IMG/VR virus record: IMGVR_UViG_3300011339_000613
Coordinates: 1-29,430 of that record
Source: a virus
Taxonomy: Duplodnaviria > Caudoviricetes
Strand: one strand, 5' to 3'
Length of the DNA: 29,430 bases
Shown here one piece after another: positions 1,048-24,744 of this stretch (positions are counted from its first letter, which is position 1; every line of letters starts with the position of its first letter). Under the pieces are notes generated by a model. That model was given only the letters and a program-made list of their open reading frames with translations, was not told where the DNA came from and did not search any database. The translations under genes and the position numbers were made by a program.

Positions 1048-1965
1048 ATGGCCGCTCCAATGCGCAGTACCGACTTTCGGTCTATTGTTGAACCCATTCT
1101 GAATGAGTGCTTTGATGGTGTATACGATCAACGTGCCGACGAATGGAGCCGTGTTTTCCGTGAGGAAGACGGCATCCCACGTAACTACCACGAAGAACCC
1201 GTCTTGTACGGTTTCGGTGCGGCTCCACAGTTGCCTGACGGCACTCCTGTGACGTACCAACAAGGTGGTGTGTTATTCCTCAAGCGTTACGTGTACAAGG
1301 TATACGGTTTGGCATTTGCTTTGACCAAAGTTTTGGTTGAAGACGGTGATCACATCCGTATCGGTCAAGTTTACGCTCGCCACTTGGCTCAATCTTTGGT
1401 GGAAACCAAAGAGTTGTTGTCTGCTAACGTGTTGAACCTCGCCTTCACTGGTGGTGCTTCAGCAGGTGGCGACGGCGTGTCATTGGTTAACACTGCTCAC
1501 CCAATCGTGAACGGTACTTTCAGCAACCAATTGGCTACATCTGCCAACTTGTCCCAGACTTCTTTGGAACAAATGTTGATCCAGATCCGTCAAGCTGTTG
1601 ACAACAACGGTAAGAAGATTCGTTTGGTTCCACGTCAATTGATCGTGGCTCCCGGCAACATCTTCCAAGCTGAAGTTCTCTTGAAGTCCGTCTTGCGTAC
1701 AGGTAACGCAAACAACGACATCAACCCTGTCAAGTCCATCGGTTTGTTGGACGAAGGCGCGGCTGTTCTGTCACGTTTGTCTAGCCCTACAGCATGGTGG
1801 GTTCAGACTGACGCTCCTGAGGGCATGAAGCTCTTGATGCGTCGTCGTCTTGAGAAGACTATGGAAGGTGACTTCGAGACTGACTCTATGCGCTACAAAG
1901 CGACAGAGCGTTACGACGTTGGCTTCACAGATCCACGCGCCGTATACGGCACGGCTGGCGTCTAA
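1048..1965 (+). CDS. Major capsid protein (HK97 fold, Mu gpT-like family)
   Basis: Strong RBS (TAAGGAGG). 305 aa with GDGVSL..TAHP, P.QLIV.P, W.VQTD and C-terminal YKATERYDVGFTDPRAVYG motifs typical of this capsid family. Strongly biased codons, followed by a hairpin. Confidence 0.92.
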   Translation: MAAPMRSTDFRSIVEPILNECFDGVYDQRADEWSRVFREEDGIPRNYHEEPVLYGFGAAPQLPDGTPVTYQQGGVLFLKRYVYKVYGLAFALTKVLVEDGDHIRIGQVYARHLAQSLVETKELLSANVLNLAFTGGASAGGDGVSLVNTAHPIVNGTFSNQLATSANLSQTSLEQMLIQIRQAVDNNGKKIRLVPRQLIVAPGNIFQAEVLLKSVLRTGNANNDINPVKSIGLLDEGAAVLSRLSSPTAWWVQTDAPEGMKLLMRRRLEKTMEGDFETDSMRYKATERYDVGFTDPRAVYGTAGV

Positions 1966-2471: not shown

Positions 2472-3635
2472 ATGGGTCAATTTAAACCTATGGTCAAAAT
2501 GATGACCACTGAGCCTTCAGTTATTCTGAAGCTCAAAAAAGGTGGCAAAGTAGAGCATAAGATGGACGGTGGGTACATGCCCATGCAGTCAACTATGCCT
2601 GCTCAAGCCTTGCCTGTTGGAAAAGGCCCAGCAGGTCTTGGTCGGGATACTGCTTTTGCACCAGCGCCTATGAAGCCCTCTTTGGCGGCTCGTCGTAAAG
2701 CAATGATGGCAAAGCCTGCTACAAAGCCTGCTATGAGTCCTACACTTATGAAAAAAGGTGGTAAGGCTGATAAGCATGAAGACGCCGCTCAAGATCGTGC
2801 AATGATCAAGAAGGCTATGTCTGGCAAGAAGTTTGCAACTGGTGGCGTCGTCAACGGTCAAGGTGGCTTCAAAGATGGTGGCATCATCAAGTCAACCAAG
2901 GGCGAGACGAAAATGGTAACTTCCAAAGTTGACCACTCACCTGCCAAAACTGGCGGTGTGAAGTTGGGCAATGGCGGTGGTTATGCAACTGGTGGCGTTG
3001 CTAAGGCTAATGGCGGTGGCTACAAGATGGGTGGTTCAGCAAAAAAAGCCTACGCGACGGGGGGAACTGTTGATACAGGCAAGCCCGTCGCGATGCCCAA
3101 AAGACCAGCTTCAAAACCTGTAGCTAACAGCATGCAATCTGGCACCTTTGCTAAGGGTGGTAAGGTCGAAAAAGCGGAGAAACCAAACCTTCGCTTGATT
3201 AAAACCTACACTGGCCCTAAAGGACATGTAGCGAAAGTTTACAAGGATCGTGACTGGCAGGAGTACAGAACCAAGTTCTATACACCTGATGGTAAGTATC
3301 TAACTGAAGGCGACTCACACACTGATGACGCTGAAGATGCTCACTCAACAGCCAAGAACCAAGTAGAAAACTCTCGCTACAAGCATGGTGGCACAGCAAA
3401 GGGCTACAACAGTGGAAGCACCGTAGACGCATCAAAAGGCGCATACGAGAAATCCATTGGCCCTAGTGAGGAAGATATGGACATGGCGAAAGCCATCCGT
3501 AGCGTTCCGCGCAAGCTGTTTGAAGGTGCGAAGAGCATGATGGGTATGACCCCCAAGCCTGCTGGTAGTGTTACAAAGACTGAGAAATCAGTTACTGTGA
3601 CTCCTGCTGGCAAAAAGCGTGGTGGTGGTTGTTAA
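2472..3635 (+). CDS. Basic Lys/Gly/Met-rich protein with about 11-12 [FYML]xxGG-type motifs; putative internal head polyprotein
   Basis: AAGGAG RBS. Motifs LKKGG, KMDGG, MKKGG, FATGG, FKDGG, YATGG, YKMGG, YATGG, FAKGG, YKHGG, YNSGS, KKRGGGC*. The function is inferred. Confidence 0.75.
   Translation: MGQFKPMVKMMTTEPSVILKLKKGGKVEHKMDGGYMPMQSTMPAQALPVGKGPAGLGRDTAFAPAPMKPSLAARRKAMMAKPATKPAMSPTLMKKGGKADKHEDAAQDRAMIKKAMSGKKFATGGVVNGQGGFKDGGIIKSTKGETKMVTSKVDHSPAKTGGVKLGNGGGYATGGVAKANGGGYKMGGSAKKAYATGGTVDTGKPVAMPKRPASKPVANSMQSGTFAKGGKVEKAEKPNLRLIKTYTGPKGHVAKVYKDRDWQEYRTKFYTPDGKYLTEGDSHTDDAEDAHSTAKNQVENSRYKHGGTAKGYNSGSTVDASKGAYEKSIGPSEEDMDMAKAIRSVPRKLFEGAKSMMGMTPKPAGSVTKTEKSVTVTPAGKKRGGGC
3041..3092 (+). 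promoter_or_regulatory. Candidate -1 programmed ribosomal frameshift signal
   Basis: In-frame A AAA AAA (3041-3047), 5-nt spacer, then CGCGACGGG (3053-3061) perfectly complementary to CCCGTCGCG (3084-3092). The -1 frame reads SLRDGGNC* (TGA 3071-3073). Confidence 0.65.
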
Positions 3636-3640
3636 GTAAG

Positions 3641-3665
3641 GTGGGGGCTTCGGCTCCCACTTTTT
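3641..3665 (+). terminator. Rho-independent terminator
   Basis: GTGGGGGC-TTCG-GCTCCCAC stem with a cUUCGg tetraloop, followed by TTTTT. Confidence 0.88.
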
Positions 3666-4087: not shown

Positions 4088-4606
4088 ATGCCAAGCAAGT
4101 CACCAGCCCAACATCGTTTGATGCAAGCCGCCGCCCACACTAAGGGTGGCTTTGGTGGCGTACCTCAAAAAGTTGGTAAAGAGTTTGTGCAAGCAGACAA
4201 AGGAAAAGCTATGAAAAAAGCTAACGGTGGCTCCACAAGCCCTTACGATTACGACAGCGACGTTGACTACTACCAAGCAATTGGTCGCCTCAAAGACGAG
4301 GATGGCGAGTCGCAAGAAGCACCTCGCATTAGCTCTGCTGTTTTAAACAAGCAGAAGACTATGCGTAGAAAGAACGCGGCGTCTAGTGCAATGTCTATGG
4401 CGGCTAAACGTGCTGGTGACAAAGACGCTGACAAAAAAGTTCAAGATCGATGGGGACGTCGTGAGATCTCTGAGTCTTTGAAAAGCAAAGCCAAAATGTC
4501 AAGAGCACCTCAAGCTGAAGGCTATCGCAAAGAGTGGTCTGAAAAGATCGGCAAAGGTAAACCCGCTCCATTCAAAACAGGTGGCAAGGCGAAGTCCTGC
4601 TGGTAA
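4088..4606 (+). CDS. Basic protein with KANGG/FKTGG motifs and C-terminal KSCW; putative internal head protein
   Basis: N-terminal MPSKSPAQHRLM.AAAH...GVPQKVGKEFV.AD module, then KANGG, an unrelated central segment, then FKTGGKAKSCW*. Confidence 0.7.
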   Translation: MPSKSPAQHRLMQAAAHTKGGFGGVPQKVGKEFVQADKGKAMKKANGGSTSPYDYDSDVDYYQAIGRLKDEDGESQEAPRISSAVLNKQKTMRRKNAASSAMSMAAKRAGDKDADKKVQDRWGRREISESLKSKAKMSRAPQAEGYRKEWSEKIGKGKPAPFKTGGKAKSCW

Positions 4607-4609
4607 CTC

Positions 4610-4786
4610 ATGAAACAAGGTCTATATGCAAACATTCATGCAAAACGTGAAAGAATCGCTAAAGGGTCTGGCGAGAAAATGCGCCGAGTTGGTAGCGAAG
4701 GTGCACCAACGGCTAAAGCCTTCAAGCAATCCGCCAGAACAGCCAAAATGAGTCACGGTGGCAAGATGACTAAGTCTTGCTGGTAA
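4610..4786 (+). CDS. Small basic protein (58 aa), not in ORF track; ends MSHGGKMTKSCW
   Basis: Read manually: MKQGLYANIHAKRERIAKGSGEKMRRVGSEGAPTAKAFKQSARTAKMSHGGKMTKSCW*. It fills the gap with 3-nt and 2-nt spacers and shares its C-terminus with the upstream gene. Confidence 0.85.
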   Translation: MKQGLYANIHAKRERIAKGSGEKMRRVGSEGAPTAKAFKQSARTAKMSHGGKMTKSCW

Positions 4787-4788
4787 TC

Positions 4789-5037
4789 ATGGCAAAGAAC
4801 CCTTCACTAGCTATTGGTCGTGGTGAGAAGCTCCCTGCAAAGCAAGGCGCTGGTTTGACGGCTAAAGGTCGAGCCAAGTATAACCGCGAGACAGGATCAA
4901 ATTTAAAGGCTCCACAACCGCAAGGAGGAGCGCGTAGAGACTCTTTCTGCGCGAGAATGGAGCCAGTCGCTGAGAAAAGCGAAAAAGGCAGTAGAGCGCG
5001 AGCTTCAATGCAACGGTGGAATTGCCCCGGTTGGTAA
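4789..5037 (+). CDS. Small basic conserved phage protein (82 aa; SFCARM...RWNC type)
   Basis: The ATG at 4789, 2 nt after the previous stop, is preferred to the TTG at 4777. GLTAKGRAKYN...NLKAP...RRDSFCARM...RWNC is a recurrent phage motif. Confidence 0.75.
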   Translation: MAKNPSLAIGRGEKLPAKQGAGLTAKGRAKYNRETGSNLKAPQPQGGARRDSFCARMEPVAEKSEKGSRARASMQRWNCPGW

Positions 5038-18624: not shown

Positions 18625-21600
18625 ATGGCACTTCAAGGTTCATACAGAAACGCATTTGAAGATACTGGCGATGTTGCTGGGGTAGATGCAACACCTAGTG
18701 GTCTATCTAATTTAGCGGTTGATCCTGTAACCACTTCAGCAACTACTGCTGGCGGTCTTGCTTCGGCGATAACCCCAGAACAAGCTGAAATGGAGCGTAG
18801 GCAATCCGAAACTAATGCTCAAGCAGAACGTGAATATGCCGCACAACAAAAAGCCGCCGCTGACAATGTAACTGACTTAGGGAATGGAACGTTCCGACTT
18901 GCTGATGGTCGAATTTTTGATAGTAGTGGAAACCTTGTAACTGATACAACAAGCGGATTGTCTGCTCTCAGCACTACTACAGATAGCGCTAAAGGAACAG
19001 ACGTTTCTGGTCTAGCCACAGATGCTACGGCAGGCACTGCGGCAACCGCAGGAACTTTGACAGCGTTAGCGCAAGGTGATGCAAATGCTACAAGTTCCTC
19101 TACATCAAATGCATACTTCAATGCAAATCCTGATGTAGCCGCCGCGTATGCCGCAAATCCAAATGGGATGACACCTGAGCAATATGCTCAATCACACTAT
19201 CAATCTTATGGTTCTGAAGAAGGTCGTGAGTCTCCATTTGCATTAAGTGGCGAGTTAGCAAAATCTACCGATTTAAAAAATGGCACGTATTTAACCGCTT
19301 CTGGAGCAATTGTTGACTCTTCAGGTAATGCAATTAAGGATACTGGATCTGCCGCCACTGCTACGCTAACAAATCAAATTCTTGCTCAAAATTTGACAGA
19401 CAAATGGCAAGGTGAGGGCTTTGGTACAGCGCAAGCAAACGCGGCTGACATGGCTGGCATCATGGCAAGTATCGGAATTACTGACATCAATCAGTTTGGT
19501 GAAGTTCCTGTTTTAGCGCAAGTAGAGCAAATTGGTCAAAAATACAATGGGCAGAATGTTTCAACGTATCAAAATGAAGATGGAACTACTCGTCAAGTTT
19601 ACTGGAGAGCGACAGGCCAAACAGATCAAGACGGCAACGCAATTGCTGAACAAGTAGAGCTTCCAAAAGATGCAAAAATTGAAACTATTTATGGTTTATC
19701 CGATGGTAACGATGGGTTCACTCAAGTCGATTCTTCCAAAGTTAAAACAGTAGATGGAAAGCTAGTAGCCGATACAGGACAAAAAACTTACGGTAATAAA
19801 GAAACAGGTCAAGCTGTTCCAAATACATACAGCGAACGTCAAACAGGAAACGCTTGGGGCGGTACGTTTGCTGGTGATGGAAATACAGGCTATCGCGTCC
19901 AATTTAAAGCAGACGGAACGCCAATCTTTTACACAACAAAAGCATCTTCCAATGACCTTGCTAATTTGATGCAAGATCTTGGCCCACTGGGTCAAATTGC
20001 TATTGCTGTAGCTACAGGTGGTTTGTCCATTCCACAACAGATCGCCGCTAACTTGGCAATCCAAGTGCTTAGTGGTAAAGATATTGATGATGCGATCAAG
20101 GGTGCGGCAATCAGTTATGCAGGTGCGCAGATCCCCGGTCTCGATGCGCTGAAAGAAGGCACCAACTTCATCAAAGATTTAGGCTTGTCAGCAGGCGTTA
20201 CAGATACTTTGACACGTTCATTCCAGAACGCCGCAGTAGCAGGTGGTAAAGCGCTCTTGTCTGGTCAGAATCTTGGTGACGCAATGATTCAAGGTGCTAT
20301 CACTGGCGGTACAAGTGGTGCTGTCAACACATTGATGGGCAATATTGAGGGATTTGATACCCTGACAGATAGCCAAAAGAAGATGGTCACAAATGCTGTG
20401 ACAGGTGTTGTTTCTGGTCAACCGCTAGATCAGATCGTCATTAACACTGCAATTGCCGCCGCAAACGCTGAAGTTGCTAAAGCCAAAGGTGTATCTGAAG
20501 TTCCCGTATCTAAAGTTGGTGATGGTACTTCTAAGGCAACACAAAGTGGCTTGGATTCCTTGGTAAATAAAGAACTTGAAAGCGCTTTGACATTTGATGC
20601 AACTGGATCAACAGACGTCAATGCCGCCGCTAAGTTGGCGCAGGATCAGGGGTACAGCAAGTTTACCTTTGATGGCAAGTCATACACCATTGACGGCAAT
20701 GAAGACGCGAAGGTTGCCGATCTAGAGAAAACGGTCAAAGCAGAACAAGATCTACTGAAAGCACAAACAACAGCCGCCAACTTAGCTGGTGGCGAGTTTG
20801 CTGGTGTAGATCAAGCTGTAGCTAATACCGCCGCTCAAAACATTGTCTCAATTGGTAACGCAGAAGCAGATACACCAGATGAAGCCGCCGCACTAGCGAA
20901 ACTGCGTAATCCAACTGGAAATCAGTTCACATTCGGTGGTCAGACATACACGATGGGTGGATCGAGCGATGCTGTAAGTAGAGCCGCCGCTGAAGCTCGT
21001 GCAGAAGAGTTAAAGAACAACATCGCTAACGCTCCATCAAAATCTGAGGCGTATAAGCTTGCTCGTGAAGGTCTTGGAGCAGGACAGACTTTTACATGGG
21101 ATGGCAAAAGCTACAGCACAAACACACTTGAAGAATCGCAAGCTATTGCAACAGCACAAGGTGATGCACTTAGCGCAAAGAATCTTGCAAACAGAACACC
21201 AGAACAACAAGCGTTAATTGACGCTCAAAGAGATACAGCCGCACGAGAAGTTGCCGCAAGAGACACAGCCGCACGTATTTCAGCAAACAATTTGCTTGCC
21301 GCAAACACTGGTGATAAGTCTGTAGATACTGGCGGATACGATGCTTTGGGCAACCCAATTGGTGGTCAGACAATCGATGCATCAGCAGATCTAAATACAG
21401 TGAGTGGTCGTTTGGCAAATGGTTTTGCGAACTCCATGACTACGTTCCTAGGTGCTGTGGCAAATGCACCTGTTGCGGCAGTTCAGGCAGGCGGAAACTT
21501 GCTTGGGAACGCTGGCGGAATCATTGATCTAGTGGCTGGCAAATCTACTGAAGCAGGTAACAAACTGCGCGAGCTTGCTGGGCAGGTGGACAAGTTTTCA

Positions 21601-24600
21601 GATTCAATCTCTGATCCTCAGATCAAGATTCAACAGAAGCAAATTGGCGAAGACATCGACAAGGCTGATGGATTGTTGGCAAAGACTGGGGCAATGCTTT
21701 CTGCCGCTGTAAACAACCCTCTTGGTGCGGCTAACTGGGTGTTTACGGAAGGCTTTGAGGAAGTCCCCGGCGTCGGTATGGCGCTCAAGGCTGGAAGCAA
21801 AATTGCTCGCTATGGCATTTCTATTGCCAACGACATGATGGAATCTGGTGGAGCGGCTTACAACGACACCTATAAGGCGGCTAAAGCCCAAGGGATGAAT
21901 GAAGATCAGGCACGAGTCGCCGCACGTAATTCTTCCCTTGCGGCGATGGTTGCAACAGGCGTTACTGGTGGCGTTGTTGAAGGCAAGTTACTTACCAAAG
22001 CAATTGGTAAGGAATCTGCTGGTGAGCTTATCGAAGGATCTGCACAAGCCGCCGCCGCTCAACTTGCTCTTGGCAAGGACTTGAATGTAAACGACGTCTT
22101 GACACAAGGTGTTATCGAGATGGGTGTTGGCAAGGGTGCAAGCTCTACAGCCAACGCTGTGACCGCTACCAACATCAATACCAATATTGCAGGTGTTGCA
22201 TCGTCTGGTGATGTGGAAAAAATCAACAGCGCTATTTCAACCTCTGTTCAAGACGCGCTGGCTAGCGGTACGGCTGTTAACGTAGCTGTCGGCACATCGG
22301 TTGCGTCTGCCATCACAAACGGTGCTGATGCCAACTCTTCGATCATCACTGCTGTAACTTCAGCGATTGATAATGGTGCTGACGTAAACCAGACAATTAC
22401 ATCGTCAATTACTTCTGCAATTAGTGCAGGTGCGGACTCTGCTTTGTCAATTGATTCGACAGTAACGTCAGCCATTACAGGTGGTGCAGACGCCGCTACA
22501 ACTGTTGATTCAGCCGTAACTTCTGCGATGACTGCTGGTGCAGACGCATCCACGTCTATCGCTTCTGCTGTACAAGCGGCTGTAAGTGCTGGCACTAACG
22601 TAACAACAGCAACAAACGCCGCTACTTCAGCGGCTGTAACCTCTGCTATCACAGGTGGAACAGACGTCTCTACAGCGATCACCAACGCCGTGAGTGGCGC
22701 GGTTGCCGCTGGTGCTGATACAACTACAGCAACGACTACGGCTACAGGGGCGGCGGTTACCACAGCCATCACTAACGGAACTGATGCTTCTACAGCGATT
22801 ACAAGTGCTGTAACTGCGGCTGTAGACGCTGGTGCAGATGTAGTAACAGCGTCCAATGCGGCTGTGACATCTGCTGTAACAGCATCGATCACAAACGGGA
22901 CTGACGTTGCTACAGCAATTTCTACTGCGGTTACTGCGGCTGTAGATGCTGGCTCAAACGTTACTGCGGCTACAAATGCCGCGACAACTGCCGCAGTCAC
23001 GTCTGCCGTAACTTCTGGTACCGATGTATCAACTGCGATCACAAACGCTGTAAATGGTGCTGTTGCCGCAGGCGCAGACGCTACAACCGCTACCAGCACT
23101 GCGGTTACTGCCTCAGTAACTGCCGCAATAACCTCTGGTGCGAATGTTTCTACAACGATCTCCAACGCCATTCAGACGGCAGTAGATGCTGGTGTCGATA
23201 CGAACACAGTGGTTGGTAACACAATATCTGCCGCGATCACCGCAGGGGCTAACGTCAATACGGCTGTCACAACTGCTGTGACTACTGCGATCAATGCTGG
23301 ATCTGATGCCAACACGTCAATTGCTACTGCTGTAAATTCAGCGATCACGTCTGGAGTCAACTCCACGACAGCCATCAATGCGGCTGTTCAAGCGGCTATT
23401 GAAGCTGGTGTAGACGTGAACACAGCGATCAACACTGCCGTGAATACTGCGGTAAATGCAAACACCAATGTAACTACTGATGCAAATGTAGACGCCAATA
23501 CGAATGTCACTACAAACGTTAACGCAGATGCAAACGTTGTCACTAATGCAAATACTGATGCAAATGCGGATGTAGTCGCAAACGCAGATCTTCCTGTCAC
23601 TTCCGTTTCTACGGTTACTGGTGGTTTGCCAACATCCGATGTGTTGACAGTAAATCCCTTGGACACTTTAGATAGCACTGTTGCGGCGACATCAACACCG
23701 TCTGTAAGCCCTCTTTCCACTACTGTTTCAGTATCTAAACCTACAGTACCACCACGCAAACCAACTGCCGCGTCAAAGTACAGTCCAAGCGATTTTGCTG
23801 ACCCAACGCTCGATAGTTCACCTCAGTTCTTGAAGGGTGCGCCCAAAGAAAAGGCTATGCAGTTGGCGGCTTTGCAACAGCTTTTCAGTTCACTGACTCC
23901 AGAGATGCAAGAAATTTTCATGGAGCGCGGAATTACACCGCCTGAGGAAGAAAAAGAATCTGAAAAAGTGGCTGAAAATGACACCAAAAAGAAAGACAAG
24001 AAGTCTGACGAAGACAAGACCAAAGAAGAAATCATCGCTGAAGAGGACGCAAAATTGACCCCTGAGCAATTGGCTGAGAAGTACAGTACAAAGTTTGCCG
24101 CCGCTGGTGGTGCTATTGGCGTATCTGAGATGAAGGATACTTTTAATCCAAACCTGAAAACTACTCAAAGCATCTTAGCCGCCGCTCCCATTACGGAAGC
24201 CCCGTTCAAACTGAGCGGTCTGAAGCACCTCAAGCAAGGCATCTCAAAGGCTCCTAGAGCGGTGAGTGAGTACGCCCAAGGGGGATTGCCTACCAAGTAC
24301 GCAAAAGCCGCTCCAAAGGGTCACAATCCCGAATTCATCACTGGATTGACTGGTTACTACGCTCAGGGTGAAGGTACAGGTCAGTCTGACGACATCCCAG
24401 CCATGCTTCACGACGGTGACTATGTGATTGATGCTGACGCTGTGGCGGCTTTGGGTGACGGTTCTAGTAAGGCTGGTGCTCAGGCTTTATCCCAGTTCCA
24501 GTCCAAGGTGCCACACAAAATGTCAACAGGCGGACAAGCTGTTCCTGCGAAGATTGCTGACGGTGAATACGTATTCCCTGAAGCTTTTGTAACTGCCATT

Positions 24601-24744
24601 GGTGGCGGTGACAACAAACAAGGTGCAAAAATGCTCGATGCGATGCGCGAAGAGCTTAGAGCGCACAAAAGATCTGCTCCTACTAGTAAAATACCTCCAA
24701 AGGCGAAAAGTCCTCTGGACTACCTCAGAATGGCGAAAGGCTAA
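18625..24744 (+). CDS. Giant (2039 aa) putative internal virion/DNA-ejection protein
   Basis: Long uninterrupted ORF after the nozzle gene. Ala/Gly/Thr-rich helical segments, several internal repeats, and a C-terminal duplicated G.G.SD.IPAML.DG.YV domain preceded by xxGG motifs. Confidence 0.75.
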   Translation: MALQGSYRNAFEDTGDVAGVDATPSGLSNLAVDPVTTSATTAGGLASAITPEQAEMERRQSETNAQAEREYAAQQKAAADNVTDLGNGTFRLADGRIFDSSGNLVTDTTSGLSALSTTTDSAKGTDVSGLATDATAGTAATAGTLTALAQGDANATSSSTSNAYFNANPDVAAAYAANPNGMTPEQYAQSHYQSYGSEEGRESPFALSGELAKSTDLKNGTYLTASGAIVDSSGNAIKDTGSAATATLTNQILAQNLTDKWQGEGFGTAQANAADMAGIMASIGITDINQFGEVPVLAQVEQIGQKYNGQNVSTYQNEDGTTRQVYWRATGQTDQDGNAIAEQVELPKDAKIETIYGLSDGNDGFTQVDSSKVKTVDGKLVADTGQKTYGNKETGQAVPNTYSERQTGNAWGGTFAGDGNTGYRVQFKADGTPIFYTTKASSNDLANLMQDLGPLGQIAIAVATGGLSIPQQIAANLAIQVLSGKDIDDAIKGAAISYAGAQIPGLDALKEGTNFIKDLGLSAGVTDTLTRSFQNAAVAGGKALLSGQNLGDAMIQGAITGGTSGAVNTLMGNIEGFDTLTDSQKKMVTNAVTGVVSGQPLDQIVINTAIAAANAEVAKAKGVSEVPVSKVGDGTSKATQSGLDSLVNKELESALTFDATGSTDVNAAAKLAQDQGYSKFTFDGKSYTIDGNEDAKVADLEKTVKAEQDLLKAQTTAANLAGGEFAGVDQAVANTAAQNIVSIGNAEADTPDEAAALAKLRNPTGNQFTFGGQTYTMGGSSDAVSRAAAEARAEELKNNIANAPSKSEAYKLAREGLGAGQTFTWDGKSYSTNTLEESQAIATAQGDALSAKNLANRTPEQQALIDAQRDTAAREVAARDTAARISANNLLAANTGDKSVDTGGYDALGNPIGGQTIDASADLNTVSGRLANGFANSMTTFLGAVANAPVAAVQAGGNLLGNAGGIIDLVAGKSTEAGNKLRELAGQVDKFSDSISDPQIKIQQKQIGEDIDKADGLLAKTGAMLSAAVNNPLGAANWVFTEGFEEVPGVGMALKAGSKIARYGISIANDMMESGGAAYNDTYKAAKAQGMNEDQARVAARNSSLAAMVATGVTGGVVEGKLLTKAIGKESAGELIEGSAQAAAAQLALGKDLNVNDVLTQGVIEMGVGKGASSTANAVTATNINTNIAGVASSGDVEKINSAISTSVQDALASGTAVNVAVGTSVASAITNGADANSSIITAVTSAIDNGADVNQTITSSITSAISAGADSALSIDSTVTSAITGGADAATTVDSAVTSAMTAGADASTSIASAVQAAVSAGTNVTTATNAATSAAVTSAITGGTDVSTAITNAVSGAVAAGADTTTATTTATGAAVTTAITNGTDASTAITSAVTAAVDAGADVVTASNAAVTSAVTASITNGTDVATAISTAVTAAVDAGSNVTAATNAATTAAVTSAVTSGTDVSTAITNAVNGAVAAGADATTATSTAVTASVTAAITSGANVSTTISNAIQTAVDAGVDTNTVVGNTISAAITAGANVNTAVTTAVTTAINAGSDANTSIATAVNSAITSGVNSTTAINAAVQAAIEAGVDVNTAINTAVNTAVNANTNVTTDANVDANTNVTTNVNADANVVTNANTDANADVVANADLPVTSVSTVTGGLPTSDVLTVNPLDTLDSTVAATSTPSVSPLSTTVSVSKPTVPPRKPTAASKYSPSDFADPTLDSSPQFLKGAPKEKAMQLAALQQLFSSLTPEMQEIFMERGITPPEEEKESEKVAENDTKKKDKKSDEDKTKEEIIAEEDAKLTPEQLAEKYSTKFAAAGGAIGVSEMKDTFNPNLKTTQSILAAAPITEAPFKLSGLKHLKQGISKAPRAVSEYAQGGLPTKYAKAAPKGHNPEFITGLTGYYAQGEGTGQSDDIPAMLHDGDYVIDADAVAALGDGSSKAGAQALSQFQSKVPHKMSTGGQAVPAKIADGEYVFPEAFVTAIGGGDNKQGAKMLDAMREELRAHKRSAPTSKIPPKAKSPLDYLRMAKG
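22309..23590 (+). repeat. More than 20 degenerate 15/19-aa Ala/Thr/Val/Ser repeats, then an Asn/Thr/Val/Ala/Asp low-complexity tract
   Basis: Unit approximately G[ATSV][DN]xxxAIxxAVxxA[IV]xx, for example GTDASTAITSAVTAAVDA. No Lys, Arg or aromatic residues in the tract. Confidence 0.85.

Follow-up and report, generated by a model that had tools for sequence, protein, structure and literature searches.

A probable programmed −1 frameshift site within a GG-motif protein gene of uncultured freshwater phages

The present study analyzes a 29,430-nucleotide stretch of DNA (IMG/VR record IMGVR_UViG_3300011339_000613, hereafter the window), a 29.4-kb fragment of an uncultured freshwater phage of the Caudoviricetes, and in particular a probable programmed −1 ribosomal frameshift within one of its late genes. 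The gene (2472..3635; it, its features and the capsid gene are all on the plus strand) is the second past the major capsid gene and encodes a protein of 387 amino acids (aa), basic (isoelectric point, pI, about 10) and mostly disordered, with a conserved N-terminal leader, repeated [FYM]xxGG motifs and a lone Cys at the C-terminus, which reads KKRGGGC. Within it lies an in-frame slippery heptamer, A_AAA_AAA, on Lys191-Lys192 (3041..3047), followed by a spacer of 5 nucleotides (nt; 3048..3052) and a stem, the predicted stimulator, whose 5′ arm (3053..3061) forms 9 bp with a 3′ arm on the first Pro-Val-Ala codons (3084..3092). The stem encloses an inner 4-bp hairpin (3067..3078, pairing 3067-3070 with 3075-3078) whose sequence varies among homologues. 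Read in the −1 frame from the heptamer, the gene adds the tail SLRDGGNC and stops (3047..3073, with TGA at 3071-3073), which would end a predicted short form of 200 aa and 20.5 kDa. An initial annotation, made from the letters of the window, had described the heptamer, spacer, stem and inner stem, the −1 reading KKSLRDGGNC-stop with products of 200 and 387 aa, and the unusual codons of the YATGG site (GCG ACG GGG GGA here, GCA ACT GGT GGC in the other two ATGG copies), and all of these were found where it had placed them. The arrangement is confirmed as real and not a product of chance. On comparative sequence evidence we consider it probable, at roughly 0.85, that ribosomes undergo programmed −1 frameshifting at the site and so make two forms, of 200 and 387 aa, that both end in Cys.

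Homologues were gathered in three sets. A protein-similarity search gave 578 IMG/VR loci, of which the best 79, less L027 and L072 as incomplete, make up the first set; the second comprised 120 loci recovered with a degenerate pattern that matches the N-terminal leader and takes no account of the frameshift site, with 45 incomplete genes dropped; together with the window these gave 139 distinct proteins. A third set of 80 loci, found with the homologue P0117, yielded 46 new proteins (one incomplete) after removal of 30 duplicates and 4 without the leader. The site was located from the protein alone, giving 128 protein-defined sites, divided below into a long-tail and a short-tail class by their −1 reading, and the null expectation was synonymous recoding with family codon usage. 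The family is large, with about 1200 stored IMG/VR stretches matching the leader pattern and 516 clusters at 50% identity.

Conservation of the A run, proposed in the initial annotation as a check, was nearly complete. An in-frame A_AAA_AAR occurred at 127 of the 128 sites (78 AAA, 49 AAG), against a synonymous-recoding expectation of 8.1%, and the sole exception, L156, carries A_AAA_AAA at another KK, reading KKSC-stop. The site pattern missed eleven proteins: the usual site is present in five, has been relocated in L130, is frame-swapped in L162 (discussed below) and is missing from the other four. Counting these, the relocated and swapped sites included, the heptamer is present in 135 of the 139 distinct proteins, and it is present in all 46 of set 3. 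Among homologues it stood at the focal KK in 69/69 distinct proteins versus 12/523 other KK pairs of the same genes, and among 24 open reading frames (ORFs) checked in the window the heptamer at 3041-3047 is the only in-frame A_AAA_AAR. Third-position entropy was 0 at five site codons (62 genes), whereas three further conserved anchors (68-132 genes) showed about 0.5-2.1 bits at their degenerate codons; synonymous variation is thus reduced at the predicted frameshift signal. There is also an upstream candidate resembling a Shine-Dalgarno sequence, a GGTGG ending 6 nt 5′ of the heptamer. Such a stimulator is optional in −1 frameshifting and usually spaced 9-14 nt away, and a sequence of this kind arises anyway from Gly-Gly codons; GGT GGT is used at 40% upstream of the site versus 17% at other GG pairs. 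By its sequence the heptamer belongs to the shift-prone class of bacterial −1 frameshift signals: in E. coli, V_VVA_AAR motifs are among the most efficient, with stimulators 5-8 nt downstream (PMC4066793).

The downstream stem provides a second line of evidence, strongest in the long-tail class. In the window, the 70-nt fold has a free energy of −24.8 kcal/mol (z −2.92), with none of 200 shuffles equally stable. Of the 103 long-tail genes, 101 can form a stem of 7 or more Watson-Crick pairs without interruption that begins 3-9 nt past the heptamer (null 19%); the spacer is 5 or 6 nt in 92 of these 101. Covariation, another proposed check, was clear. Among the 87 long-tail genes with at least 7 of the 8 core pairs, here called stem-bearing, the pair between the third bases of the Ala and Val codons, both fourfold degenerate, is G-C in 44, U-A in 32 and C-G in 11; on the capsid tree its 5′ base changes at least 16 times and its 3′ base 17 times, while 63 of 64 rows remain Watson-Crick. 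In a hand-picked 15-sequence alignment, 96% of cells were paired versus 34-52% in slid controls. The core pairs include 20 G-U and 0 A-C, which favours an RNA of the plus strand. From 60-nt folds it first appeared that 15 homologues had lost the stem; this was rejected, since 85-nt folds show a moved partner in 13 of them (L009, L022, L023, L044, L074, L131, L134, L136, L144, L152, L160, L172 and L199). In these the 5′ arm is the same, but its partner is the second run of Pro-Val-Ala codons, some 30 nt downstream of the first (3117..3125 in the window, where they are unpaired in the predicted fold). Compensatory changes are seen here too, among them G-C replaced by A-U in L134, L152 and L172, and the relocated stems enclose a longer inner structure of about 55 nt. 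On this comparative evidence a conserved RNA structure starts downstream of the heptamer at about the 5-8 nt typical of such signals, and the layout proposed in the initial annotation, that of dnaX or IS3-type frameshifting, is upheld at the level of sequence by heptamer, structure and low synonymous variation together. As a separate observation, the gene in L134 ends with an in-frame TAA followed by AKGGKTKKC-stop, which could be a nonsense change, an error or possible readthrough.

The third line is the end of the −1 frame itself. A Cys followed by a stop closes this frame at 105 of 128 sites (null 6.7%) and in 45 of 46 proteins of set 3, and it is reached by several routes: ten residues in KKSLRDGGxC, seven in KKSRGRC, five in KKSVC or KKSIC, and four in KKVC, KKIC, KKAC or KKSC. 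The initial annotation had expected a conserved GGxC-stop. The Cys-stop is indeed widespread, but it is only the long-tail class whose −1 frame encodes GG anew (95/103, null 0.6%); in the short-tail class, 24 of 25 genes end KKVC or KKIC and GG is supplied upstream in frame 0. Several tail lengths lead to the −1 Cys-stop, so that conservation is of the terminal Cys more than of GGxC. The −1 GG depends on a G at the third base of the first Gly codon, which is kept in 83 of 87 genes though it is unpaired in 38, and which only 4 of the 24 short-tail genes have, their −1 frame having ended before it; the T-ending codons needed by the short-tail ends occur in 24/25 versus 24/76 like motifs elsewhere; and KK[YF]ARGG uses the rare codon AGG in 7/7, keeping a −1 TAG. 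In L292 the GG is gone in frame 0 and retained in frame −1. Internal Cys is rare in the family (39 in 51,673 residues). The site is mid-gene, with a median ratio of short to full length of 0.63. Three family genes of 64-216 aa (L149, L167 and L201) lack the site and the downstream half; the ends of L149 and L201 fall at the expected end of the short form, and L201 resembles the short form alone. In another homologue (L255:3389-4795) there is an insertion of about 70 codons between the heptamer and the usual downstream module, and its −1 frame ends KKALRHGG.

A frame-swapped allele was also found. In L162 (L162:2893-2940; also L250, L252, L253, L262 and L264) the site reads A_AAA_AAA TGC TAG, so that frame 0 stops at KKC after 237 aa while the −1 frame holds the usual downstream half to its Cys end (347 aa). 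The heptamer persists, and so does a stem of 10 bp that carries the C-G variant; the G-run has been lost. The gene looks broken yet keeps exactly the signal that would join its halves. Loss of one A from an A8 run in assembly was considered and rejected, as gap-free contigs cross the site in four runs of four studies, one at depth 108 (one of the four runs may be the source of the L162 DNA itself), and two further assemblies also cross it without gaps. Contigs from RNA libraries cover parts of L162 and one (X19) crosses the site unchanged, although contigs cannot show transcription or slippage. L251 was set aside as a chance pattern match, and pattern scans of IMG/VR for further swapped alleles returned the L162 contig alone. 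P0117, of 240 aa, ending KKGGAAKKC and 77% identical to L162 in a 4-member cluster, is probably a second swapped lineage, although known from protein alone; P0117 and P0151-P0153 are homologues of 236-240 aa with this same ending. The initial proposal of a truncating frameshift is therefore retained for most alleles but not for all: as read from its frames, L162 would yield the short form by ordinary frame-0 translation and the extended form only after a shift, so truncation is not essential. The further proposal made there, that the shift would set the stoichiometry of the downstream segments, is an inference.

Several observations weigh against a programmed frameshift with two Cys-ended products. 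Capsids at 102 of 140 loci are 87-100% identical to that of the window, so the family sample is one clade and the counts are not independent events; recombination may also inflate the change counts on the capsid tree. Four of the 139 proteins (L145, L149, L167 and L201) have no such site. The stem is weaker in the short-tail class (11/24, null 10%), and median folding z against synonymous recoding is modest at −1.6 and −1.3. The 23 of 128 −1 tails without Cys (18%) include many in the far-stem group, and Cys ends in the two forms are only loosely linked (both 96, long only 16, short only 9, neither 7; Fisher p 0.01, ignoring phylogeny). The junction in L162 is overlapped by an ATG, 13 nt after GGTGG, from which the second half might restart independently as a separate 112-aa product. 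Finally, in E. coli A_AAA_AAA shifts less than A_AAA_AAG (PMC5009743).

The alternative that survives best, although we judge it improbable, is that the shift is real but serves only to reduce how much full-length protein, or product of downstream genes, is made, with the short product as waste. Synthesis can simply be broken off when a frameshift leads to an early stop (PMC6771820), and the waste reading is consistent with the tails without Cys and with an expectation of 68%, from the protein alone, for a −1 stop within 11 codons. It would not account for re-creation of the Cys-stop by at least five geometries, for the short form as the default product of the swapped allele, or for genes resembling the short form alone (L201, L149). 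Slippage of RNA polymerase on the A run, to which we would assign only a very small chance, would give an identical product by one added A, and A7 runs are prone to transcriptional slippage (PMC4066793); however, 49 of 127 sites are A6G, codon phase is fixed, and the conserved stem lies downstream, so that it is unmade while the polymerase is on the run, as is well established. An antisense terminator, or another RNA or DNA element unrelated to frame, appears just as remote. The minus strand does read stem, 5 nt and T7, and in 21 of 87 genes the stem ends in a C-A pair whose minus-strand counterpart would read G-U, but an intrinsic terminator has its U-tract directly after the hairpin and the gap of 5-6 nt is too long, a terminator scan does not list the site, the wobbles of the core favour the plus strand, relocated alleles enclose about 55 nt, and the Cys-stop and swapped allele are left unexplained. 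Least credible of all is a slip on G_GGG_GGN within the 5′ arm to give YATGG-NC-stop. This motif is formally an in-frame heptamer in 91 of 101 long-tail sites, but the swapped allele and the short-tail class lack it while retaining the A heptamer, no stem is placed at the right distance from it, and its G_GGG_GGU form shifted least of all the motifs assayed in E. coli (PMC4066793). Each of these alternatives fails on specific alleles.

For the ribosomal frameshift, there are several known systems with which the phage site may be compared. The shift in E. coli dnaX yields a shorter product with the same N-terminus. The dnaX tau/gamma site is also like the phage site in its Lys-Lys A_AAA_AAR and downstream stem-loop (PMC6771820), but the phage gene is a late gene and not a replisome subunit, the Cys that ends the long form is encoded again at the end of its short tail, some alleles have the opposite polarity, and its upstream Shine-Dalgarno-like sequence is a candidate stimulator at most. 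In E. coli copA, a −1 shift to an early stop gives the functional short protein CopA(Z) (PMC6771820), although that is a folded chaperone domain and the phage form a disordered basic chain with a dual-coded end. Among insertion sequence (IS) elements, 72% of heptamers are A_AAA_AAG or A_AAA_AAA, with stimulators starting 5-8 nt downstream (PMC4066793), and the extending layout of OrfA/OrfAB in IS1 and IS3 is that of the swapped allele L162; the phage gene, however, is not a transposase and most of its alleles are truncating. Phage lambda G/GT, T7 and T3 gp10A/B, and the immunoglobulin-like (Ig-like) extensions of A2 and A118 also give two products with the same N-terminus from one virion-module gene (PMC5009743), but the cases described there extend tail-chaperone, capsid or tail genes, and the GG-motif gene is none of these and is usually truncated. 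A tail-assembly chaperone of the G/GT kind, which would lie between the major tail and tape-measure genes and be extended into an overlapping ORF, was ruled out, as the gene is in the head module and its −1 frame closes after 8 codons, and so was a C-terminal extension of capsid or major tail protein as in T7 gp10B or A2, as the site is mid-gene in a non-capsid gene. Tools of the PRFect type were trained on overlapping gene pairs (PMC10885494), a layout that most alleles here do not have. No report of this frameshift site was found in the literature covered, including the available portions of PMC4066793, PMC6771820, PMC5009743, PMC10885494, PMC5512222, PMC10172136 and bioRxiv 2025.10.02.679949, with subscription papers and supplements outside this scope; glycine motifs are not mentioned in the portion of PMC5512222 available.

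The two predicted forms, of 20.5 and 40.5 kDa, are both basic (pI 10.3 and 10.0) and differ in folded content. In the AlphaFold model the 387-aa protein is disordered except for aa 240-300 (3189..3371; predicted local distance difference test, pLDDT, 86-91), a small beta-sheet-plus-helix domain present in the long form only. This domain occurs in just part of the family and stands alone in Pseudomonas phages; it was the source of the only PHROGs match (phrog_7884, aa 245-298) and has a weak fold likeness to the anti-CRISPR AcrF1 (E 0.06), a lead at most. Across the family the extension past the site ranges from 44 to 257 aa. There was no family in a Pfam search, only unnamed viral clusters under 0.9 in ESM Atlas, and no match at E 0.001 or better in the PDB.

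The surroundings of the gene provide some context. The major capsid gene (1048..1965) encodes a protein 93% identical to that of MW202545, a metagenomic phage, and 76% to that of Caulobacter phage RW. Among 50,697 phage records, MW202545 is the sole match beyond the small domain, its GG-motif gene being listed as a plain hypothetical protein, and no cultured member with the gene was found; in the cultured capsid relatives Caulobacter RW, CRP-901 and HTVC023P, the genes examined next to the capsid gene include neither a homologue nor the signal. In phage RW the capsid gene is followed by a 501-aa Cys/His-rich gene, endonuclease-like by eye (L127:7088-8593), with no GG-motif gene among the genes examined nearby. 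In the stretches of MW202545 examined, no protease, RNA polymerase or tape measure is annotated, the first two judged by annotation only, without profile search. Six matches in genome bins, five betaproteobacterial and one Hyphomicrobium, hint at hosts, although bins may contain mis-binned phage contigs. Directly 3′ of the gene (3641-3665) there is a GC hairpin with a TTCG loop and T5, terminator-like by eye and not listed by the terminator scan, with similar hairpins 3′ of the gene in homologues. The [FYM]xxGG motifs also occur in other late proteins (ORFs 4088-4606 and 18625-24744), and two small basic late proteins end near a Cys, with KSCW (4088-4606) and NCPGW (4777-5037, DUF6321). A 2039-aa ORF contains long Ala/Thr/Val-rich low-complexity repeats (22248-23759) over which the opposite-strand frames are open.

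By analogy with dnaX and IS elements, the proposed frameshift would proceed by tandem slippage of tRNA-Lys: the ribosome would stall at the stem with tRNA-Lys on both codons, slip one base back and terminate 8 codons later to release the 200-aa form. What the two forms would do is more speculative. T4 internal proteins are basic or disordered head-module proteins thought to be packed with DNA. Cargo proteins of crAss001 are likewise head-module proteins thought to be packed with DNA (PMC10172136), and the GG-motif protein, here known from its gene alone, is similar in being basic, disordered and in the head module; no sequence or fold link to such internal head or cargo proteins was found in PHROGs, Pfam, ESM Atlas or the PDB. 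It is possible, with chances we would put slightly short of even, that it is a disordered basic protein packed in the head as a carrier, although its virion location is deduced solely from gene position. The short form (leader, basic GG repeats and Cys) would then be a constant part, and the long form would carry, in addition, exchangeable cargo and a conserved module some 40 aa long, with the shift rate setting the share of copies that carry cargo and the common Cys end serving as a handle, either a cross-link or a processing site. A wider proposal, which we hold only tentatively and regard as rather doubtful, is that of a flippable switch, in which either frame may hold the long product, the stem partner jumps, and both products end in a free Cys that would be read by some step of head assembly or processing, the shift setting how much exchangeable cargo, including one module whose fold faintly resembles an anti-CRISPR, is loaded on a packaged carrier.

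The putative site would represent a class of phage recoding that annotation has missed because it is hidden inside one ORF, as in MW202545. The natural series of alleles, with A7 or A6G heptamers, near or far stems, and truncating or extending outcomes, is a ready panel for the evolution of frameshift signals and their polarity. That both wirings persist implies that the shift ratio would be either near half or tolerant, and the repeated rebuilding of the terminal Cys offers a testable handle on the otherwise unexplained GG-motif proteins.
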